From contig JAYNIA010000006.1 of assembly GCA_038108555.1 (NCBI GenBank), forward strand, positions 12,874-76,873: 64,000 bases of DNA, given 5' to 3'. The notes beneath the pieces are model-generated. The model had not been told where the DNA came from and ran no database searches. It saw only the letters and a program-made list of their open reading frames with translations. Shown here piece after piece: positions 18,477-58,033 of the stretch (positions are counted from its first letter, which is position 1; every line of letters starts with the position of its first letter). Made by a program: the position numbers and the translations under genes. This DNA comes from Nitrospinota bacterium (GTDB lineage: Bacteria; Nitrospinota; Nitrospinia; Nitrospinales; VA-1).

Positions 18477-19841
18477 ATGAAGAATTATATCAGAAAATTG
18501 AATCGCAATCGTTGCGCTTCCCTTTGTCTTGTTTTGTTGATTTTTACCTCTTGTTTTCCTGCCGAAAAAGAAAAACCAACAGTTGAGAAAAAAGATTTCT
18601 CTCTTCCGGTTCAAATTGGGAAAGTTGTTTATATGAATCTGGCCGATGAGGTGCGTGCTTTCGGTAATATCGAATCAGGACAGGAACTGGCAGTTTCACC
18701 AGAAATAAAGGGCCGTGTGGCAATGGTTTTAGTTGAAAAAGGACACAAGGTAAAAGCCGGTGACCTGATTGCGCAAATTGATCCGGGGGATTATGAGCTT
18801 GTCCTGGAAAAGCTCTATGCGGACTTCTCTTCCTCTGAGGAGGAATTCAAAAAAGCCCGGGAGGGATTACGCCAGGAGGAAAAGGAAAGGTTGGAGGCGC
18901 AAACACGGGCTGCACAAAGTTCTCTGAAACTTGCCAAAGTAGAATTGAAGAGAACAAAAAACCTTGTCGAAAGAAAAGTTCTTCCCCAATCTGAACTGGA
19001 TGATGCGGAAGATAAAATTCGCCAGGCCAGTGAAACATTGAAAGCGAGCCAGGCGGAACAGGCAGCGGGAATGACTTCTCGCGTAGAGGAGATAGAAAAA
19101 CTGGGGTCTGAAATCGATGCCATTCGAAAACAGATCGAGGTAGCTGAAAACAACCTTTCAAAAGTAGATGTTTTGGCTCCGTTTGACGGAGTGATTATTA
19201 CCAAAGAAATTGACCAGGGGGCCATTGTTAGTCCGGGAACGGTTATTGTTTCTATGATTAGCTCTTCCAGATTTAAAGCTGTTCTTGAAATTCCGCAAGG
19301 TTACCGAAATAAATTAAACAAACTGAGAAAAGCCGATTTTTTCGTGAAGGAGTTGGGGTTGCGATTCAAGTACAGCAAAAACCTGAAGCGGATGATTCGA
19401 GTGATTCCCGATTCGAAAATTTTTTCCGGAAATATTAAAGTCCAAATCGATTTGCAAAATCCTGATTCGTCTTTGTATTCGGGTTTGACCCTTGAGAGTA
19501 AATTGAGTTTTGGAGTGCGCAAAAATGTCCTTAACGTTCCAGCCATTTCTTTGGTGAAAACCGAAAAGGGAACGGTGGTATATATTGTAAAAAATAAAAA
19601 AGCACACCCGGTTCCTGTGAAAGTTTTCCAAGAGCACGATGGATTTGTTGAGATCAAGGATACTACGCGTCAGTTAAATGCGGATGCAAAATTGATAATG
19701 AGAGGATCAGGGGCCGTTTTCCCGGAGGCCACCGTATTCATAACTAATCCCGAATCGGGTATGGAAACACCGTTAAACTCCGCATCCAAAGATAGTGGCA
19801 TGGAAAAACCTAAAGCTTCTGCGAAAAATCCGAAAAGCTGA
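18477..19841 (+). CDS. RND efflux periplasmic adaptor (membrane fusion protein)
   Basis: Lipobox (FTSC), lipoyl half-motifs (VKAGDLIAQID; APFDGVI), long coiled-coil hairpin; coupled to the downstream permease by TGATG overlap. Confidence 0.9.
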   Translation: MKNYIRKLNRNRCASLCLVLLIFTSCFPAEKEKPTVEKKDFSLPVQIGKVVYMNLADEVRAFGNIESGQELAVSPEIKGRVAMVLVEKGHKVKAGDLIAQIDPGDYELVLEKLYADFSSSEEEFKKAREGLRQEEKERLEAQTRAAQSSLKLAKVELKRTKNLVERKVLPQSELDDAEDKIRQASETLKASQAEQAAGMTSRVEEIEKLGSEIDAIRKQIEVAENNLSKVDVLAPFDGVIITKEIDQGAIVSPGTVIVSMISSSRFKAVLEIPQGYRNKLNKLRKADFFVKELGLRFKYSKNLKRMIRVIPDSKIFSGNIKVQIDLQNPDSSLYSGLTLESKLSFGVRKNVLNVPAISLVKTEKGTVVYIVKNKKAHPVPVKVFQEHDGFVEIKDTTRQLNADAKLIMRGSGAVFPEATVFITNPESGMETPLNSASKDSGMEKPKASAKNPKS

Positions 19842-22800
19842 TGAAACTTATAGACCAATCAATTAGAAATTATCATACGGTTACGGTCATAATTGTTATG
19901 GCGTTGGTGGTGGGTGCTTTATGCTTTCAAACCCTTCCGAGACAGTTGACTCCTACTGTGGATAAACCCCAAATCGAAGTGAAGACCGAGTACCTTGGTT
20001 TGTCCCCCAATGAAGTAGAACGCAACATCAGCCGGCGTCTGGAAGAACAGCTTGAGTCTGTCGAGGGGATGAAGAAGATGACCTCGACCAGTCAACACGG
20101 ATTGAGCACCATCAACCTTGAGTTTGAATGGGGCATTGACAAAAATCTTGCTGTGCTTGATGTGAATAATAAATTGCAGCAGGTGAAAGACCTTCCTATT
20201 AATGCAGACAAACCCACGTTGCGGTCGATATCCAGTGATAACTCCAGTCCCATCATGTGGATCGTATTTGACAAACCCGATGAGAAGATGCCGGATCTGA
20301 ATCAGAACTATATGTACAAAATCGGGGAGGATATTATTGTTCCTTCTTTAAGAAGGATTAAGGGGATTGCAGATGTATGGCATTTCGGAGGTGAGGAGCG
20401 CGAAATGCGTGTCGAGTTTAATCCCTACAGCCTGGCACGGCTGCGGTTGACTTATAAAGAGGTGATAGATCGTCTCACGGAAGAAAACCAGAATACCCGT
20501 GCCGGGTTTCACGATGAAGAAAACCGGGCTTATACCGTTCGCGGGCTGGGTGAATTTATAAATCCGGAAGACATTCTTGATACGGTTATAAAAAGGGATG
20601 GTGACCGGACCATCCGGGTGCGTGATTTTGCAACGGTGGTCGATGGTTACCAAAGAACCGATTCCCTGGTGCGTATCAGCGGAAATTTATCAAACGCATT
20701 TGGAGTGATTCGCAAAGCGGGTGCCAACGTTGTAGAAACATGTAACCTCGCGGCCGAACGGGTTAAAGTTTTAAATCAGGAACTGCTGAATCGCGGAATT
20801 CCCCTAAAGTTAAAAATTGTTTACAAGGATGTAGATTACATCGATGAGGCAATGCGCCTTGTAAAATCGAACCTCGGGTTGGGTGCCGTCCTTGCGGTTG
20901 CTGTTTTGCTGGTCTTTCTTGGGTCAGCGCGGTCATTGTTGATCGTTGCGATCAGCATTCCCGTTAGTCTGGTGTCCGTTTTTATTATTTTGAAAATGTT
21001 AGGGCGAAGTATCAACATCATTTCGCTCGCAGGTATGGCCTTTGCCGTAGGCATGGTGGTAGATAATTCTATTGTGGTCCTTGAAAATATTTATCGCCAC
21101 TTAACCATGAAGAAGGGGGTTTTAAAAGCTGCCTACGATGGGGCCTCCGAAGTGTGGGGAGCTGTGTTAGCTTCGACATTGACAACTTTGGCGGTGTTCC
21201 TTCCTATTGTGTTCATTGAAGAAGAAGCCGGGCAAATGTTTCGCGACATTGCAATCACGATCAGTGGTTGTATCGCGCTTTCATTATTGGTGTCTATCAC
21301 CGTTATTCCCACTCTGACCACTTTGTTGATCCGGTTGAAACCGGGCGAGGAATACAAACCGGGATTCTTTCACCGCACCTTGTTCCGTCCTGTAGTGTTG
21401 ATAGGTAAGGGAATCGGAAATGCCTATTCCGGATTGATGGCTCGTATACTCCATAATTCTTTTTTCAGTGTTTTGATGCGAATAGGAATTCTTGTGGGTG
21501 TTTGCTGGATGCTGTGGTATAGCGGCCAGGTTTTGCCTAAAAAAGATTATCTTCCCTATGGAAATACAAATATGGTGTTCATGATGATTGAACCAGTTGC
21601 AGGAACACCTGCTTCAACCAACATGAAATATCTGGCGGAATATGAAAAAAAGATTGTCAACATGGAAGATGTAAACAGAAACTTTTTGGTTTTTTCTCCC
21701 AGGTTCAATGGCGGCGGAGCCATCATTGAAAAAGATCTGGCACAGGGACAACGGGGAGAAGTAAAGATGGCTGTGAAGGCAAATGAAATGGGAGGCGATA
21801 TTTTTGTCATTCCCGGATACCGGTTTGCATTTGCCGTACAGCGTCCTATTTTCCGCTCTGCGGATAAAACATTTGAGGTGGAAATTACCGGACCTGAAAT
21901 TCTCAAGCTGAAAGATATTGCCATGGGTTTGATTGGTAGAATCTCTGGAATCTCGGGTGTCCATTCGGTGCGCCCCGAATTTAAATTTGGAAACCCGGAA
22001 CTTCGATTCATTCCCAGAAGGGAAGATGCGGCAAGGTTGGAATTGGGAATGAAGGAAATAGGAGATATTGTTGAGTCTTTAAACGCGGGAAAATATTTAG
22101 GTGAGTTCAACGACCGGGGCGAGCCTATTGATTTTGTCCTGGTCCAGAAAAAGGACGATAAAAAACTGGGCCTCGAAGATTATCGCTCTCTCCCCATTTG
22201 GACAGACCAGGAATTAATGACCCACCTGGGTCATCTGGCAGATATTGAGATTGATGCCGGTCCCGCCAGGATAGACCATATAGGAACGGAACGGGCGATT
22301 AAACTCCGGGTGCAGGTGCGAAAAGATATACCCATGCAAACCGTCATCGATAATGTGGAAGAAAAAGTATTGGGACCGACCCGGCTTACTTTGAATGAAG
22401 AGTTTGGCTTGAGGATCGGAGGTTCTGCGGATGAATTGGCTTCTACAGAGAAATCCCTGGCGAATAGTTTCGCCTATGCCGTAGGATTCATTTATCTTCT
22501 CCTCGTCGCCTTGTTCTCATCTTTTATCCGTCCTTTTATTGTTATGCTTACCGTGATCCTTGCGGTTTCAGGGTCTTTTCTGGGAATCACCTGGAACAAC
22601 TGGTACCAGAGGGGAAACATACTGAGCATATTGGAGGAATGGAAGGTTCCAAATGCACAGGCGATGGCCGAAGGTTGGAACTGGATTACCTTCGATATCC
22701 TCACTCAGTTGGGTGTGGTTATCCTGGCTGGAATTGTTGTGAACAATGCTATCTTGATCGTCCATCAAATGCTGAACAATATTAAAGCCGGGATGGAAGA

Positions 22801-51642: not shown

Positions 51643-52560
51643 TCAATTTTTTTGGTTCCAGGCCCTTTGAATAGAGGCTGTAGGTTGGTGAACCAGATGA
51701 CACATTTTGCATGATTGCTTGTTGATTTGTTCGATATTGGCCTTGAATACTTTTTCAGATGGTTCCCCTGTTGCAAACTCCTTCTTGATGGTTTGCAGTG
51801 CATTCATAACATCATCCCCAACAAAAAAATCTTTGACCGACACAGAGCTTTTTGTCCACTCGGAAACATGGCATTTTGAACAAACGGAACGTAGGCTAGT
51901 GAGCCTTTTGGTAAAAATTTCGAGTGATTTCCAGGCGTCTTGAACATTTTTTTGTTCAAAGTTTACGGTGATCCTCATTAAGGAATCTGAAAGCATTTTC
52001 ATATATTGAGGGTAACCGATTTCTTTTTCTTCAAAAGGATCCAGCACTTTTATGGTTTCTGTTGAAGGCCAGTGATATCTAACCCAAACGCTGGTGTTCT
52101 TTTTTAAATGGCAATTTGCGCAGGTTTCCTCAAGAGTTTCCGAACTTTCTCCAATTTTTTTCATGTCTTTATTCAGGATATCTTCCTGAAACTCCCGGGC
52201 CGCCTTTAGATTAAAGTCTTCTTCCCATTCTGGAACCATTTTTGAGGCTTTATTGTATTGGTCCAAAAATAGTTCCGTATTTTTTTCCGCAAGATCCCAG
52301 CGTTTTTTTTCAATATTGACAAATATTGAGGATAGGGAAGTGCTGAGTTTCTGCATTTGTATGATCCAATCCGAAGGCATCCCCGGTTCCGCATAATATT
52401 GATCCATGGATTTTGGCGGGGGAGTGACCCGAAAATCTGAAGATGCAGCAGGTTGGATAGAAAAAAAGAATAAAACCGAACTAAAAAAAATTGGTCCCAT
52501 CAATAGGGATTTTCCCAAAAACAAAATATTATTTTTCTTTGGGGTGTCGATTTGGACCAT
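51643..52560 (-). CDS. periplasmic triheme c-type cytochrome
   Basis: Signal-like hydrophobic segment; CANCH, CSKCH, CKMCH. Confidence 0.85.
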   Translation of the reverse strand: MVQIDTPKKNNILFLGKSLLMGPIFFSSVLFFFSIQPAASSDFRVTPPPKSMDQYYAEPGMPSDWIIQMQKLSTSLSSIFVNIEKKRWDLAEKNTELFLDQYNKASKMVPEWEEDFNLKAAREFQEDILNKDMKKIGESSETLEETCANCHLKKNTSVWVRYHWPSTETIKVLDPFEEKEIGYPQYMKMLSDSLMRITVNFEQKNVQDAWKSLEIFTKRLTSLRSVCSKCHVSEWTKSSVSVKDFFVGDDVMNALQTIKKEFATGEPSEKVFKANIEQINKQSCKMCHLVHQPTASIQRAWNQKN

Positions 52561-52935: not shown

Positions 52936-53700
52936 ATGCTTTTAGTTATTGATGTTGGAAATTCGAATAATGTCATTGGATTGTTTTCGGGAGAAAAACT
53001 GCTCACTCATTGGAGAATCAGGACCGAGTGGAACAGAACTGCAGACGAATATTGGGTTTTGATTAAAGAATTCATCTTGTTGAACAATGTGGAAACAGAA
53101 ACCATTGATGATATTGTGATTGCCTGTGTGGTGCCACCTCTGGTTCCGATTCTTCAAAACATGGGAAAAAAATATTTTTCATGTGAACCCTTGATTGTTG
53201 GCCCCGGAATTAAAACGGGAATTTCCATTCTTTACAGGAATCCATCTGAAGTGGGTGCAGACCGTATCGTAAACTCCGTCGCTGCATATGAAAAATATGG
53301 TGGCCCGTTAATCATTGTCGATTTTGGAACCGCGACCACTTTTGATGTTGTGTCGGAAAAGGGGGAATATCTGGGAGGTTCTATTTTCCCCGGGGTTCAG
53401 ATTTCCCTGGAAGCCCTTTTTAAAAATACAGCCAAACTGCCTCGAGTAGATATGACCTTTCCGGAGAAAGTCATTGGAAAATCCACCGTAGAAAGCCTGC
53501 GTTCAGGTGCGGTCTATGGGTTTTCAGGGATGGTCGAGGCATTGGTGAAACAGATAAAAGATGAATTGGGCCAAAATGCCCATGTGGTGGCAACAGGGGG
53601 GATTGTTGATTGGATCACTACGGAAACATCAACTATAGATACCATCGATCCCTTTTTAACCCTGGACGGTCTCAGAATTATTTATGAAAAAAATAAATAA
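52936..53700 (+). CDS. coaX: type III pantothenate kinase
   Basis: IDVGNSN, VGADR, VDFGTATT, GGSIFPG, ATGG, LTLDGL. Confidence 0.95.
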   Translation: MLLVIDVGNSNNVIGLFSGEKLLTHWRIRTEWNRTADEYWVLIKEFILLNNVETETIDDIVIACVVPPLVPILQNMGKKYFSCEPLIVGPGIKTGISILYRNPSEVGADRIVNSVAAYEKYGGPLIIVDFGTATTFDVVSEKGEYLGGSIFPGVQISLEALFKNTAKLPRVDMTFPEKVIGKSTVESLRSGAVYGFSGMVEALVKQIKDELGQNAHVVATGGIVDWITTETSTIDTIDPFLTLDGLRIIYEKNK

Positions 53701-53717
53701 TTCATTTTTCTTTTTTA

Positions 53718-53802
53718 AACAAAAAACCCCGGCTATCCCAAACGCAGCGTTTCCAGTAAGAGGAGGAGACCGAAAACCATGAAATTTGGAATAACCGGGG
53801 TT
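53718..53802 (-). ncRNA. structured 3' UTR element / candidate sRNA-terminator with an anti-SD apical loop
   Basis: Minus-strand fold: 18-bp stem (53785-53802 with 53725-53742), internal loop, 9-bp stem, apical loop CUCCUCCUCUU, then a U-tract; four G:U pairs form only on the minus strand. Confidence 0.6.
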
Positions 53803-53812
53803 CAGGGGACGT

Positions 53813-54061
53813 TTATACTTTTACGACTCGCGATCCTTTCCTAATGAATAGACGTACCATTCTATGGTCGTCTTCAATGTCAGATATTCTGCACCCTTGG
53901 CTTTTTGCCCATTTCGTGAAATCTTCTGTGAAATTTTTCTTTTTATCCAAGATCAGCTCTAAAATTCCATTTTTCTTTACTCTTCTGAACTCTTCAGAAG
54001 CCAGCTGAAAGGCTTTAAAAAATGAAAGTCCTCGGATATCCAGTGTTCTAAACATTTCCAT
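53813..54061 (-). CDS. TusA/SirA-fold small protein lacking the CPxP cysteine
   Basis: TLDIRGLSFFKA aligns by eye to TusA TLDxxGLxCPxP; LELILD, DFTKWAKSQG, LFIRKG follow the family pattern; GGGAGGG RBS. Confidence 0.75.
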   Translation of the reverse strand: MEMFRTLDIRGLSFFKAFQLASEEFRRVKKNGILELILDKKKNFTEDFTKWAKSQGCRISDIEDDHRMVRLFIRKGSRVVKV

Positions 54062-54369
54062 AACAAATCCCTCCCTGTTTTAATCTGCTGTCAGGTCGTT
54101 TAATTTCAATAGAGCTATTTTATGTTTGCAATATTAAAAAGTAGTTAATCAGGCATTAATTTTTTTTAATATTTTAAGGTTCCCAAGTGAAGGTTCTCTT
54201 TTAAGCTGTTGAATAATTTGTCTTTTTAGGGGCTCACGTTGAAGTGAATGGGCAAGGATTTAATTAATCTGTTTATTTTCAATTCATATAGGATGCCGGT
54301 GCAGAATGAGATATAGTTATTAGCTTAAATTGAATGATATTAAAGTAAACAGGTTGTCAGGAGATATAA

Positions 54370-55314
54370 ATGGGTATTATTCGTGGAGGCGATGCAGAGT
54401 ACGAAGAATTTGAGCCTTCCTATGAGGAAAAAGCAGAAAAGCTTGAGGCAACTTTAAAATCTTTGCTGGAAGAGAATTCTGACTCTCTTAAACTTTCTGG
54501 AAAATATATAGCGACCGATGAGGTGAAAATTATTAGTAATTTTTCTCCCATGGGTTCTGTTAAGTCGCTCGACTTAAGTGATAATCAAATTAATGATGAG
54601 GCCTTGCAGTACCTTTTTGAATCAGAAACTCTTGGCGGGTTGGAAGAGCTTCAATTGCAGATAAATTTTTTAACCGGAAAAGGATTGAGTGAGCTTGCCA
54701 AATCTGAAAATGTAAAGCTGAAAAATTTAAAATCCCTGGTTCTTTCCGATAACCGGTTAAGCGATGCATCAATTGCAGAAATGTTTCTATCAAATAATTT
54801 TCAAAGTCTCGAATCCCTGAATGTGGGTTGGAATGAAGCGGGTAATGAAACAGCCAAAGCCCTTGGAGCAACCACTACATTTCCTAATTTAAAGAAACTG
54901 GAAATGGAGCGCAGCTACCTTGAGGAGGAGGGTTTCCGTGAATTTGTAAAAGGACAAGTTGCCGATCAACTGGAGGTTCTGGATTTGTCAGCCAACAAAA
55001 TCAATGATGAGTCTATGAAGATTATTGCGCAGGCTGAAAAATGGAAATCTCTTAAGACCCTTCGCTTATCACAAAATAGATTTGGTAATGAAGGCGCGAA
55101 AGCTTTGGGAGAATCTAGTTCATTAAGCGGACTCACCCAGCTTTATGTGGGAAGGAACTATTTTGATGCCGAGGGTGCCCAGGCAATTTATGAAAGTAAA
55201 GTGCTGAAAAATCTCAAGACCCTGGTGATTAAAGAGGATATTGATGAGGGGTCTGGACTGGTAAATTATTCGCGCCCGGAACTTCTTCGTCCGGACGACC
55301 CCAACGCAATCTGA
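54370..55314 (+). CDS. leucine-rich repeat protein (RI-like, about 27-aa repeats)
   Basis: Repeats LxxLxLxxNxIxxxxxxxL; AGGAG RBS; no signal peptide. Confidence 0.88.
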   Translation: MGIIRGGDAEYEEFEPSYEEKAEKLEATLKSLLEENSDSLKLSGKYIATDEVKIISNFSPMGSVKSLDLSDNQINDEALQYLFESETLGGLEELQLQINFLTGKGLSELAKSENVKLKNLKSLVLSDNRLSDASIAEMFLSNNFQSLESLNVGWNEAGNETAKALGATTTFPNLKKLEMERSYLEEEGFREFVKGQVADQLEVLDLSANKINDESMKIIAQAEKWKSLKTLRLSQNRFGNEGAKALGESSSLSGLTQLYVGRNYFDAEGAQAIYESKVLKNLKTLVIKEDIDEGSGLVNYSRPELLRPDDPNAI

Positions 55315-55321
55315 TCTGGAA

Positions 55322-55981
55322 TTAAAATATTTTCAGTTTTTCAAGTTTCGTCAATTTAGGGGAGTTTTTTAAAGCCTCTTTAGCTTCCTCCGACTTGATC
55401 CGGTTTCCACCCAGATGCAGATAATTTAAATTGCAAAGGTTATCTGAATTGGCAATGGCCATGGCTCCCTCATCACCGACCCGGTTATCAACCATATTCA
55501 AATGTTCTACTTTGGTCAAGTAAGGGGATTGTGCCAGTGCTTTTGCACCTTCAGCAGTAATTCCGTTACATTCAAGGTTTAAGGTTGTTACCTCTGAAAA
55601 AATGGGGGCTTGAGCCAAGATAGCCATGCCCTCGTTTCCTAGATCATTGGAACCCAGATGTAGATAATTCACTTTGGGAAGGATAGGTGAAGAAACAAGA
55701 ATTTTGAGACCTTCAGGTCCCAGTCTATTGTGCGTGATAATCAAACTGGAAATGGTTTTTATATATGGGAAGTTGGCGATTAACTCGGCAAGTTCCCGGC
55801 CATGATCTTCTTCGATTTTTCCGGTTTTTGAAAACAGGTAGGCGTCTTGAATTTTGAGGATCTTTTTATCTTTTATATTTTCGAAAAGGATTTTTTCCTT
55901 GGGTGAAAGCTTATCACCCTCGCCACCGTAGTTTTCACCGTCGTTACATAACTCTTCCCAGTTTTTTAATTTTTCTGCCAT
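55322..55981 (-). CDS. leucine-rich repeat protein
   Basis: YLHLGSNDLGNEG, TLNLECNGITAEG, HLNMVDNRVGDEG repeats; start at MAEKLKN. Confidence 0.85.
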   Translation of the reverse strand: MAEKLKNWEELCNDGENYGGEGDKLSPKEKILFENIKDKKILKIQDAYLFSKTGKIEEDHGRELAELIANFPYIKTISSLIITHNRLGPEGLKILVSSPILPKVNYLHLGSNDLGNEGMAILAQAPIFSEVTTLNLECNGITAEGAKALAQSPYLTKVEHLNMVDNRVGDEGAMAIANSDNLCNLNYLHLGGNRIKSEEAKEALKNSPKLTKLEKLKIF

Positions 55982-55986
55982 GAATC

Positions 55987-56451
55987 CTAACGTTTGAGTC
56001 TTTTTTCTCTTGCACAACCTGCCTGATTACCCATTCCGCAGGCTCTTTTATAATACTTGATAGCTTTGCTTTGCCTACCTTCTTTGTAGTTTAGGGTGCC
56101 CAGGTTATAGCAGGACTGGTCCTCTCCAGCTTCACAGGCCTTATCAAACATTTTGCGTGCTTGCTTGAATTGTTTGCTATAGGGTGTTCCCTTCATAGCC
56201 AGAAGGATGCCGCCATTGGTGCAACCTGTCATATAATCCCCATCGCAGGCTTTTTCATAAAATCCCAAGGCTGTTTTTAAATCTTTTTCAACCGTTCGAT
56301 ACCGCTCACCGGTTTTGAAACAGGCGGTTGCGTTTCCTTCTTTGCAGAGAGCTTCCAGTTTTTGATCAAAGGATAATTCTTCAGCGAGGGCTCCTGGAGC
56401 TAAAAATACAATCGAAAGCAAAACAATGAGTGCTTTATTTAAATATTTCAC
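55987..56451 (-). CDS. secreted Cys-rich Sel1-repeat protein (HcpA-like)
   Basis: Signal peptide; repeats KAC.......C..LG; GAGG RBS. Confidence 0.85.
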   Translation of the reverse strand: MKYLNKALIVLLSIVFLAPGALAEELSFDQKLEALCKEGNATACFKTGERYRTVEKDLKTALGFYEKACDGDYMTGCTNGGILLAMKGTPYSKQFKQARKMFDKACEAGEDQSCYNLGTLNYKEGRQSKAIKYYKRACGMGNQAGCAREKRLKR

Positions 56452-56696: not shown

Positions 56697-57224
56697 GTGA
56701 ATATCGTATTGCTGGGTTATCGGGGTACAGGAAAATCAGTAATATCCAAAATTCTTTCTGAAAGGCTTCGTATGAGGCTATTCAAAATTGATAAAATGAT
56801 TACGGAGTCAGCTGGTAAATCCATTCCCGAAATTGTGGAACAAGACGGCTGGGAAAGTTTTCGAAAGCTGGAATCAAAAATTGTGGCGGACGTTTCTAAC
56901 AAAGCCAAAAACTGCATTATAGATTGTGGCGGCGGTGTTGTCTTAAATAAGGAAAATATAGTTAATTTAAAGAGGGAAGGGATTTGTGTCGTACTCACCG
57001 CCAGCCTGGAAACCATTCTCAAAAGAATTCGCCATGATCCCAATCGTCCTTCTTTTGGGGATGGGCTTAGCTTTGAAGAAGAACAGAAAAAAAATATTGC
57101 GGAGCGTGAAGAAAAGTATCGTGCCGCAGCAGATTTTACCTGTGATACATCAGATCGCCGACCCGGAGAGACGGTGAGAGAGATAACCGATTTTTTGAAA
57201 TCAAAGGGATGGATTAAAAAATAA
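56697..57224 (+). CDS. aroK: shikimate kinase
   Basis: GYRGTGKS Walker A, GWESFRKLE, DCGGG, RP, R...Y; GTG start. Confidence 0.9.
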   Translation: MNIVLLGYRGTGKSVISKILSERLRMRLFKIDKMITESAGKSIPEIVEQDGWESFRKLESKIVADVSNKAKNCIIDCGGGVVLNKENIVNLKREGICVVLTASLETILKRIRHDPNRPSFGDGLSFEEEQKKNIAEREEKYRAAADFTCDTSDRRPGETVREITDFLKSKGWIKK

Positions 57225-58033
57225 TGAGTCCCCTTTTTGAAAGCCTGGTCGTTAATAGCCTGACTATCCTTGCAGATGAGCCGGATGATTCTACTGCAAT
57301 GGTGTTGAATGAGGCTGAAACACAGGCGGAGTTGGAAGGCAACGAAAAAGCCATATATAGGCTGGACTTGAATGACAAAGAAGTCCTGCTGGAAGAACTG
57401 GAAGATTTGATGGCTTTCAATAAAACTCAAAAGGTCAAGGATCTTCGGCTGGATAAAAATGAGTTTTTTGACGAAGGGGTGGAACTGCTGGTCAATGCTC
57501 CAGCTTTAAAAAAGTTAATAACCCTTTCGCTGGCTTACAATAAACTTACCGATAGTGCTCTGAAAGCTATATCTGCATCGGAAAATATTGTGAATTTAAG
57601 GAAGCTCTTTTTGCAGGGAAACCGGATTGGTGCTGAAGGAATGAAAGCTTTAATGGCATCTGAAACGCTTTCAAATTTACAGCTTCTATATCTTAACCTC
57701 AATCCGATAGGCCCTGATGGGGCTAAAATTTTAGCGGGGCCTGGCAAAATGATGCAATTGGAAGAGCTATACCTTCAAAAAACTGGAATCGGAGAAAAGG
57801 GATTGAAAGACCTTTGTGAATCCGGAAATTTCAAAAACCTCAAGCTTCTTTCGCTGGCAGGTAACGGGCTGGATGATCATGCGGCCGAGTTGATATATCA
57901 TTCCACGGCTTTTCCTGAATTAAAAACGCTGGATTTGTACCACAATAAAATCAGCGATCAGGCAGTTGACCAACTTCGTAATTCCCCAAACCTCCCCAAG
58001 TTAACCGCTCTTCAGGCCGACTGGCGCAGTTAA
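57224..58033 (+). CDS. leucine-rich repeat protein
   Basis: Regular 27-aa repeats such as LRKLFLQGNRIGAEGMKALMASETLSN; TAATG-coupled to aroK. Confidence 0.88.
   Translation: MSPLFESLVVNSLTILADEPDDSTAMVLNEAETQAELEGNEKAIYRLDLNDKEVLLEELEDLMAFNKTQKVKDLRLDKNEFFDEGVELLVNAPALKKLITLSLAYNKLTDSALKAISASENIVNLRKLFLQGNRIGAEGMKALMASETLSNLQLLYLNLNPIGPDGAKILAGPGKMMQLEELYLQKTGIGEKGLKDLCESGNFKNLKLLSLAGNGLDDHAAELIYHSTAFPELKTLDLYHNKISDQAVDQLRNSPNLPKLTALQADWRS

Follow-up and report, generated by a model that had tools for sequence, protein, structure and literature searches.

A conserved hairpin RNA behind a gene for a Cys-less TusA-family protein in Nitrospinales, and its operator common with degP/htrA and sibling RNAs

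A small gene for a Cys-less TusA-family protein in the order Nitrospinales (marine nitrite oxidizers) is followed by a hairpin RNA, which is under selection as a minus-strand structure throughout the order. The gene stands under an operator common with degP/htrA and with sibling RNAs, and the hairpin is complementary to the ribosome site of a porin. We lean, with somewhat more belief than doubt, towards the reading that the structured RNA at the 3' end of this short transcript is a trans-acting anti-Shine-Dalgarno (anti-SD) small RNA, one of several probable envelope-stress siblings, which would repress the porin. The order-wide structured RNA is real, and the regulon was undescribed before: in the literature searched, that outside subscription journals, no small RNA or regulon was found for Nitrospinales. 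The window is the whole stretch of 64,000 nucleotides analysed here, and the genome it belongs to is called the own genome (G000 in coordinates). The features of the locus are as follows.

53717..53802, minus strand: conserved structured RNA of about 86 nt with a U-tract at its end; candidate 3'-UTR sRNA and terminator
53785..53802, minus strand: 5' arm of the outer stem, 18 bp, partner 53725-53742
53725..53742, minus strand: 3' arm of the outer stem, from folding and covariation
53749..53777, minus strand: inner stem-loop, a 9-bp stem of 53777-53769 with 53757-53749
53813..54061, minus strand: 82-codon open reading frame for a basic TusA-family (PF01206) protein without the CPxP cysteine
54068..54075, minus strand: Shine-Dalgarno sequence of the small gene, differing between members of the order
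52936..53700, plus strand: convergent neighbour coaX (type III pantothenate kinase), outside the module

The hairpin begins 10 nt past the stop codon of the small gene. Its outer and inner stems are separated by an internal loop, the 11-nt apical loop CUCCUCCUCUU lies at 53768-53758, and the U-tract runs to 53717. The original prediction, made from the letters of the window, had placed the reading frame, both stems, the loop and the U-tract at these positions, and refolding the window recovered them all. The minus strand folds with -43.7 kcal/mol (z -4.9, with 0/200 shuffles as good) against z -0.7 and 44/200 shuffles as good for the plus strand. On the minus strand each of the four non-Watson-Crick pairs is a G:U pair, from which selection at the RNA level had been proposed; across 86 elements G:U occurs 65 times and A-C twice, and the functional strand is thus the minus one. 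The sense strand folds better in 76 of these elements. The 86 were counted from 101 distinct 3' regions, after 15 had been dropped by eye as lacking the hairpin or carrying a degraded one (those of g5, g6 and g12 together with five metagenome loci, two of them g1-like).

The proposed checks of covariation and of conservation both came out in favour of the structure. In a set of 38 diverse sequences, 91% of the outer-stem cells are paired and 17 of the 18 pairs of that stem are changed on both sides, and 84% of the cells of the whole hairpin are paired against 39-59% in slid controls. Double-sided changes are found in 25 of the 26 hairpin pairs. The pairing beats all 500 shuffles (0/500), a test which kinship of the sequences inflates. 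The outer stem conserves its sequence as well as its pairing. A covariance model matches 71 of 120 genomes, 35 of which were in its training set, and none outside the order. The full-length hairpin stands directly behind the gene in 69 of the 80 genomes that have the gene, in all four Nitrospinales families, and every full-length hairpin found is behind the Cys-less gene. The 11 remaining genomes are g5 (6), g12 (2), one degraded g6 copy and two truncated or contig-end cases. Rfam gave no match at gathering score in the window and none over the hairpin at E<=10 in 8 loci, only chance-level matches being returned. An origin from a repeat or MITE was considered and rejected, the element being single copy in the own genome. 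As separate observations, in two g1-like metagenome loci (L076, L077) the hairpin and its loop have decayed while the protein is still 87% identical, and many g1 and g9 loci have an apparent short hairpin in the 5' UTR of the small gene, just upstream of its Shine-Dalgarno sequence.

The most persistent part of the element is its loop motif. CCUCCU is present in 75/86 elements, the conservation foreseen for the loop, and the C-rich motifs are unpaired in 94% of cases across the 86; a similar 7-mer is found behind only 29 of 2653 genes of the own genome. The motif is held in the apical loop in g1, g9 and g4, on the 3' side of the internal loop only in several genera, and at both loop positions in the hairpins of family f4. 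A plain terminator has no need of a motif that persists through changes of its position and of the stems.

The transcript evidence consists of assembled RNA contigs of relatives. Contigs from two studies cover the gene with the hairpin and stop at the hairpin end, and 5' ends in four RNA runs lie at about 54089-54102; one X3 contig continues beyond the hairpin. They give a weak hint of a short monocistronic transcript of the gene and the hairpin. Hfq, on which CpxQ depends, is absent in 6/6 genomes searched; two RNase E/G genes and CsrA are each present in 5/5 genomes.

The protein of the small gene matches only one Pfam family, PF01206 (TusA), with E 1.3e-7, above the cut-off. It has D-x-R-G-L-S-F-F where true relatives of TusA have C-P-x-P. 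A cysteine missing in this assembly alone would have spoken against the original prediction; none of the 133 proteins retrieved has a Cys within six residues after DxRG, so it is not an assembly error, and 48 of the 68 aligned proteins have no Cys at all. The AlphaFold model (pLDDT 87.6) has the order beta-alpha-beta-alpha-beta-beta, which fits the TusA-type fold that had been expected. In a PDB sequence search the best matches were designed proteins, and the YedF-region protein 1je3 was matched with E 0.006; in the ESM Atlas, above 0.9, only clusters of its own family were matched. The protein is basic (median net charge K+R-D-E of +6), and D8, R10, G11 and R70 are invariant. Judging from the residues at the site, it cannot carry persulfide at the usual place, and databases nonetheless label the subfamily sulfurtransferase.

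The gene is found in 80/120 Nitrospinota genomes, in all four Nitrospinales families, and in 0/18 genomes of five other families of the phylum; among the genomes searched it is restricted to Nitrospinales. A profile search against 1.84 billion representatives gave 36 matches, 27 of which reach E 2e-8, and the tail past that value includes true CPxP TusA proteins. Three fused forms were set aside, each being a single-contig match of chimeric appearance. The Cys-less protein is the sole stand-alone PF01206 protein in 5/5 genomes checked, and in 3/5 the domain also occurs inside an 800-residue frame. By its sequence it forms a separate, order-restricted TusA subfamily; the literature search on Cys-less TusA gave nothing on the topic. 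Among the neighbours we note three leucine-rich-repeat proteins clustered beside the small gene (54370-56017, 57224-58033), two of them confirmed by Pfam, and a secreted protein of 305 residues at 51643-52560 (minus) that has three CxxCH motifs and matches cytochrome c' only weakly.

Upstream of the small gene there is a repeat of TTAA boxes. It is given here with the genes found under the same operator elsewhere in the own genome.

54133..54170, minus strand: operator of four TTAA boxes spaced by 10, 11 and 11 bp, over the -35 position
54117..54122, minus strand: -10-like hexamer, 10 nt past the last box, consensus TA.AaT across loci
G000:C42:20297-21772 and 18848-20278, minus strand: tandem degP/htrA genes, with the operator before the first of the pair
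G000:C50:1-683, minus strand: third htrA, behind dnaJ, with the operator before the gene
G000:C15:36288-36470 (L147, about 1520-1700), plus strand: candidate stand-alone sibling sRNA with the same operator and -10 box

The operator together with the -10-like hexamer would act as the promoter of the small gene. At least 14 of 16 points of the operator pattern are scored by 65/70 upstream regions of the gene. The exact pattern occurs 1-7 times per genome in 51/51 good Nitrospinales genomes, and its reversed form, used as a control, was not matched in the 51 genomes; with one mismatch allowed, the operator was found in 0/5 genomes outside the order. A weight matrix gave six matches in the own genome: the small gene, two HtrA/DegP genes, the C15 site, which has no open reading frame, and two doubtful ones. 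Further sites were fetched from 17 genomes, a subset of the 51. Of these 40 sites, 11 precede trypsin+PDZ HtrA genes, 16 lead directly into a pyrimidine-rich anti-SD leader plus hairpin, 7 stand, with no such leader, before members of a family of 51-68-residue frames, 2 stand before cytochromes c, and 4 belong to other genes or are broken. In two f4 genomes (L181, L183) the operator stands ahead of a class I cytochrome c that belongs to a multi-copy family, and in one g9 genome (L025) other sequence replaces the operator, the gene and the hairpin being retained.

The repeat geometry and the presence of degP lead us to infer an OmpR-type regulator and an envelope-stress signal. A TTAA motif of CprR and htrA may also exist in Campylobacter. 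The own genome encodes three OmpR-type regulators, and two of them are order-wide (51/51 and 50/51 genomes). One of these two, at G000:C2:73000-73665 (minus, L177), is accompanied by a HAMP sensor kinase, and its identity is 81-96% within the order and 54% beyond it; it is a candidate for the regulator that binds the TTAA operator. The second order-wide one lies at G000:C8:6781-7494. In the recognition helix, as tabulated for CiaR in PMC3091779, one of the two order-wide regulators is identical to CiaR in 7/13 residues and the other in 4/13.

The C15 sibling is about 120 nt long: an anti-SD seed at its 5' end is followed by a hairpin, then by a second C-rich linker, and a terminator closes it (z -3.0). 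It is conserved in the 30 loci fetched and in family f1, with counterparts in f2 and f3; Rfam returned only chance-level matches in 7 sibling loci. In the four RNA runs, which come from relatives and contain only 3-14% of the words, 0 contigs lie across it, an uninformative result. The siblings either stand alone or lead a different small open reading frame, and no TusA-like gene is attached to them. Six of the 16 anti-SD leaders are ahead of a 51-68-residue frame without a Pfam match. This basic family (start M..Y/H-P/E-V-K-V/I-F/Y) is under the same operator and has an anti-SD leader or a C-rich 3' tail; about 8 weak homologues are present in the own genome. As far as can be judged from sequence, the 51-68-residue protein with its leader or tail is a second module of a small protein plus RNA. 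Its loci are given in one line.

L182, L185, L192, L196, L199, L201, L202, L205, L206, L211, L214, L217, L218: loci of the 51-68-residue family

The distribution of hairpins and leaders is suggestive only of the two complementing each other across lineages. The four g5/g12 genomes examined, which have no 3' hairpin, carry two anti-SD leaders each; the five f4 genomes examined have no leader among the exact operator matches, but their hairpins hold two motifs and their small frame is followed by C-rich tails.

The loops were then compared with the ribosome sites of 2668 genes of the own genome (2667 sites), obtained with a simple gene caller of our own. A perfect 9-nt match to the loop region is found in six of the 2668 genes, and two of the six encode outer-membrane proteins, a TonB-dependent receptor and the following porin.

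G000:C13:718-2196 (L221), plus strand: alginate-export-family porin (PF13372), present once in most genomes, its ribosome site varying hardly at all across the order

The seed GUCUCCUCC (53762-53770, minus) is the exact complement of the ribosome site of this porin, which is present in 47/51 genomes and has the site UGGAGGAG in 39 of the 40 genomes fetched; GGAGGAG is present in only 10/2668 Shine-Dalgarno windows of the own genome. The 16S tail of the own genome is CACCUCCUUCU; the seed CUCCUCC departs from ACCUCCU of this tail in the way that fits the porin site. In family f1 the next letters after the site are AC, the partner of the GU that precedes the loop in most hairpins of g1, g9 and g4; in the other families the next letter is G, and f4 hairpins hold C there. 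The porin was singled out after the ranked list of targets had been inspected, which should be kept in mind for its ranks among the 2667 background sites: 25, 32, 21, 7 and 1 for the g1, g9 and g4 hairpins, 2 for the g17 hairpin, and 4-93 for 24 of 25 sibling seeds. The 16S tail ranks it 453 in f1 and 68-78 in other families. The hairpin seeds of g2, g8, g10, g11, g13 and g16 rank it only 118-594, and those of f4 46-320, no better than the 16S tail (68). In g4, alone among five genera tested, hairpin and porin form a 16-bp duplex through AUG (p<=0.0005, core fixed).

We consider the PF13372 porin the best candidate target, and no more than a candidate. The window's own hairpin does not pair significantly beyond the core (p 0.08 and 0.41); a genus-level permutation of hairpin-porin co-evolution in 14 genera was not significant either (p=0.11); and the start region of the porin (conservation 0.75) is nearly matched by those of rplL (0.70) and atpA (0.73), so the conservation of the site may reflect only high expression. 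For most sibling flanks, pairing beyond the core is likewise borderline or not significant. Genes with a signal peptide are not enriched among the top predicted targets (17/50 vs 25%, p=0.14), and our list of 30 putative barrel proteins is crude and noisy.

We presume the following mechanism. An OmpR-type regulator would bind the TTAA boxes and switch on degP/htrA, the small gene and the siblings. The hairpin would end transcription and, as part of the intact mRNA or once cut free by RNase E/G, present its unpaired CCUCCU motifs; a pre-formed unpaired seed should need no Hfq. The motifs would pair with the GGAGGAG ribosome site of the porin mRNA and lower its translation, and other mRNAs with a strong Shine-Dalgarno sequence are probably also paired. 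The load of barrel precursors would thus be cut while DegP removes the misfolded ones. The TusA-like protein may be a co-regulated cytoplasmic effector, probably dispensable for the RNA.

The same RNA in the same regulon could act more broadly, as a damper of strong-SD mRNAs at large (porin, ATP synthase, cytochromes, ribosomal proteins). Gene by gene, the pairing energy of the seed follows that of the 16S tail (rho 0.76), several hairpins rank atpA at 17-86, and neither the lack of enrichment of envelope genes nor the permutation value for the porin speaks for a dedicated target. We still think this unlikely: the departure of the seed from the 16S tail and the long g4 duplex both favour the porin, and the porin mostly ranks far ahead of rplL, atpE and the EB_dh gene. 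The interaction could also be in cis, the 3' loop folding back onto the Shine-Dalgarno sequence of the small gene and limiting its translation. This would be akin to CpxQ, which lowers CpxP according to the portion of PMC4817254 used here, and in g19 the own site of the small gene ranks 8-9/2667. In the own genome it ranks 236/2668, however; it is poorly conserved (0.48), it shows no co-variation with the loop (p=0.45), and siblings devoid of a reading frame would be left unexplained, which makes such feedback very unlikely. We assign still less weight to the hairpin being merely an oversized bidirectional terminator or a 3' stabiliser between convergent genes. A U-tract is indeed present in 68/86 elements, coaX is convergent and the RNA contigs of relatives end at the hairpin, and termination is probably a second role of it. 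Yet the unpaired motif outlives changes of the stems, can lie in either of two loops and is found again at the 5' start of the sibling RNAs under the common operator; a terminator alone is highly improbable. Hardly credible at all is a function of the plus strand, where the loop would serve as a Shine-Dalgarno sequence for an antisense small frame or offer GGA motifs to CsrA. The window does have a plus-strand Shine-Dalgarno sequence followed by a 21-codon frame, and CsrA is encoded in the genomes checked (see above), but such a sequence with a start codon occurs in only 21/86 elements, with lengths of 3-101 codons, and the G:U to A-C ratio points to the other strand.

The partnership of protein and RNA deserves a separate comment, as the original prediction had the protein partner the RNA in the way CcaF1 partners CcsR. 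The basic Cys-less protein would bind, mature or escort the hairpin in place of Hfq, which could coexist with repression of the porin by the RNA. Its charge and invariant residues, the constant position of full-length hairpins behind its gene, the absence of Hfq and the sequence kept by the outer stem besides its pairing all agree with this, and the TusA fold resembles IF3-C. The eight g5/g12 genomes nevertheless retain the protein in the absence of the hairpin, and a sibling either is free-standing or precedes another small frame. As the protein persists without the hairpin and siblings exist without the protein, the partnership is unsupported, and we regard it as quite unlikely. Equally unlikely to us is the boldest combination, an order-wide Hfq-free envelope-stress circuit: one regulator would command DegP proteases and a mobile anti-SD seed, repeatedly re-housed (3' hairpin loop, 3' bulge, stand-alone 5' seed, leader or tail of the second small-protein family) and shutting the main porin, with the Cys-less TusA-fold protein as chaperone of all these RNAs. 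We retain the trans-acting anti-SD RNA directed at the porin as the preferred reading.

What the analysis yields is a new family of structured RNA with sibling sRNAs, an operator and the genes co-regulated by it, a candidate target that can be named, and the definition of a Cys-less TusA subfamily. Within TusA/SirA carriers (PF01206) the protein has the Pfam match and the same order of secondary structure in its model; CPxP is replaced by SFF, and without the cysteine it is not a member of the carriers.

The module had been likened to cuckoo RNAs, and this stood in part: there is a strand-specific 3'-UTR RNA with a conserved unpaired anti-SD sequence, while the partnership with the protein did not hold and the cuckoo motif CCUCCUCCC is present in 2/86 elements. 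According to the excerpts of PMC8034643 at hand, CcsR/cuckoo with CcaF1 has in common with our case C-rich anti-SD loops and a stress promoter, and its location also varies between taxa, either in a 3' UTR or in the 5' UTR of a small-protein gene. The same excerpts describe tandem two-hairpin units with CCUCCUCCC loops and an RpoH promoter, where we find one long nested hairpin and a repeat operator; the adjacent gene here is PF01206, not DUF1127. By architecture, motif and DUF1127 the hairpin is therefore outside cuckoo/CcsR. Two other small RNAs are of the same general kind. FoxI of Fusobacterium nucleatum, as presented in part of PMC9546586, is an Hfq-independent sRNA arm of an envelope-type stress response and represses membrane proteins; it is driven by sigma-E, in place of which we find an operator of DNA repeats with several anti-SD siblings. 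CJnc230/FlmE of Campylobacter jejuni, in the sections of PMC11187230 consulted, is a conserved anti-SD sRNA from downstream of a coding gene, processed from behind it, with a seed between two stem-loops and membership in the flagellar RpoN regulon; unlike there, the genomes here encode RNase E/G.

The common operator, the co-regulation of degP/htrA, the siblings and the porin candidate, all absent from the original prediction, make CiaR/csRNA and CpxQ the closer parallels. Cpx is the enterobacterial two-component envelope response, which limits damage by barrel proteins (PMC4817254). As in cpxP/CpxQ of that text, one presumably stress-induced transcript would give a small protein and a 3'-UTR sRNA, which in our case is a candidate; the protein here is cytoplasmic and of the TusA family, whereas CpxP is periplasmic, the seed is of the anti-SD type, Hfq was not found, and neither sequence nor Rfam gave a match to CpxQ. 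The CiaRH regulon of Streptococcus comprises htrA and several redundant anti-SD csRNAs, and the CiaR box is NTTAAG-N5-TTTAAG, 10 nt before -10, with an essential G (PMC3091779, in the part available). Relative to that part, both systems have a TTAA repeat of 11-bp period ending 10 nt before -10, htrA under the same box (here 11/40 fetched sites, plus 2 in the own genome) and several sRNAs with an unpaired anti-SD, sometimes anti-start-codon, sequence, some of them with two stem-loops around a single-stranded seed. In distinction from it, four boxes ending in T or C replace the two NTTAAG boxes, the phylum is diderm with a porin as candidate target, and the present member is 3'-UTR-borne, with its seed in the loops of one long hairpin. 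With a box that lacks the essential G and with no Rfam csRNA match for the hairpin, membership in csRNA fails. By analogy, the hairpin RNA most likely works like the streptococcal CiaR csRNAs or CpxQ, as a member of neither family nor of cuckoo. If this is true, a further phylum, one without Hfq, has arrived at the envelope-stress design of a protease plus sRNAs, apparently independently and in a manner reminiscent of the streptococcal CiaR/csRNA system.
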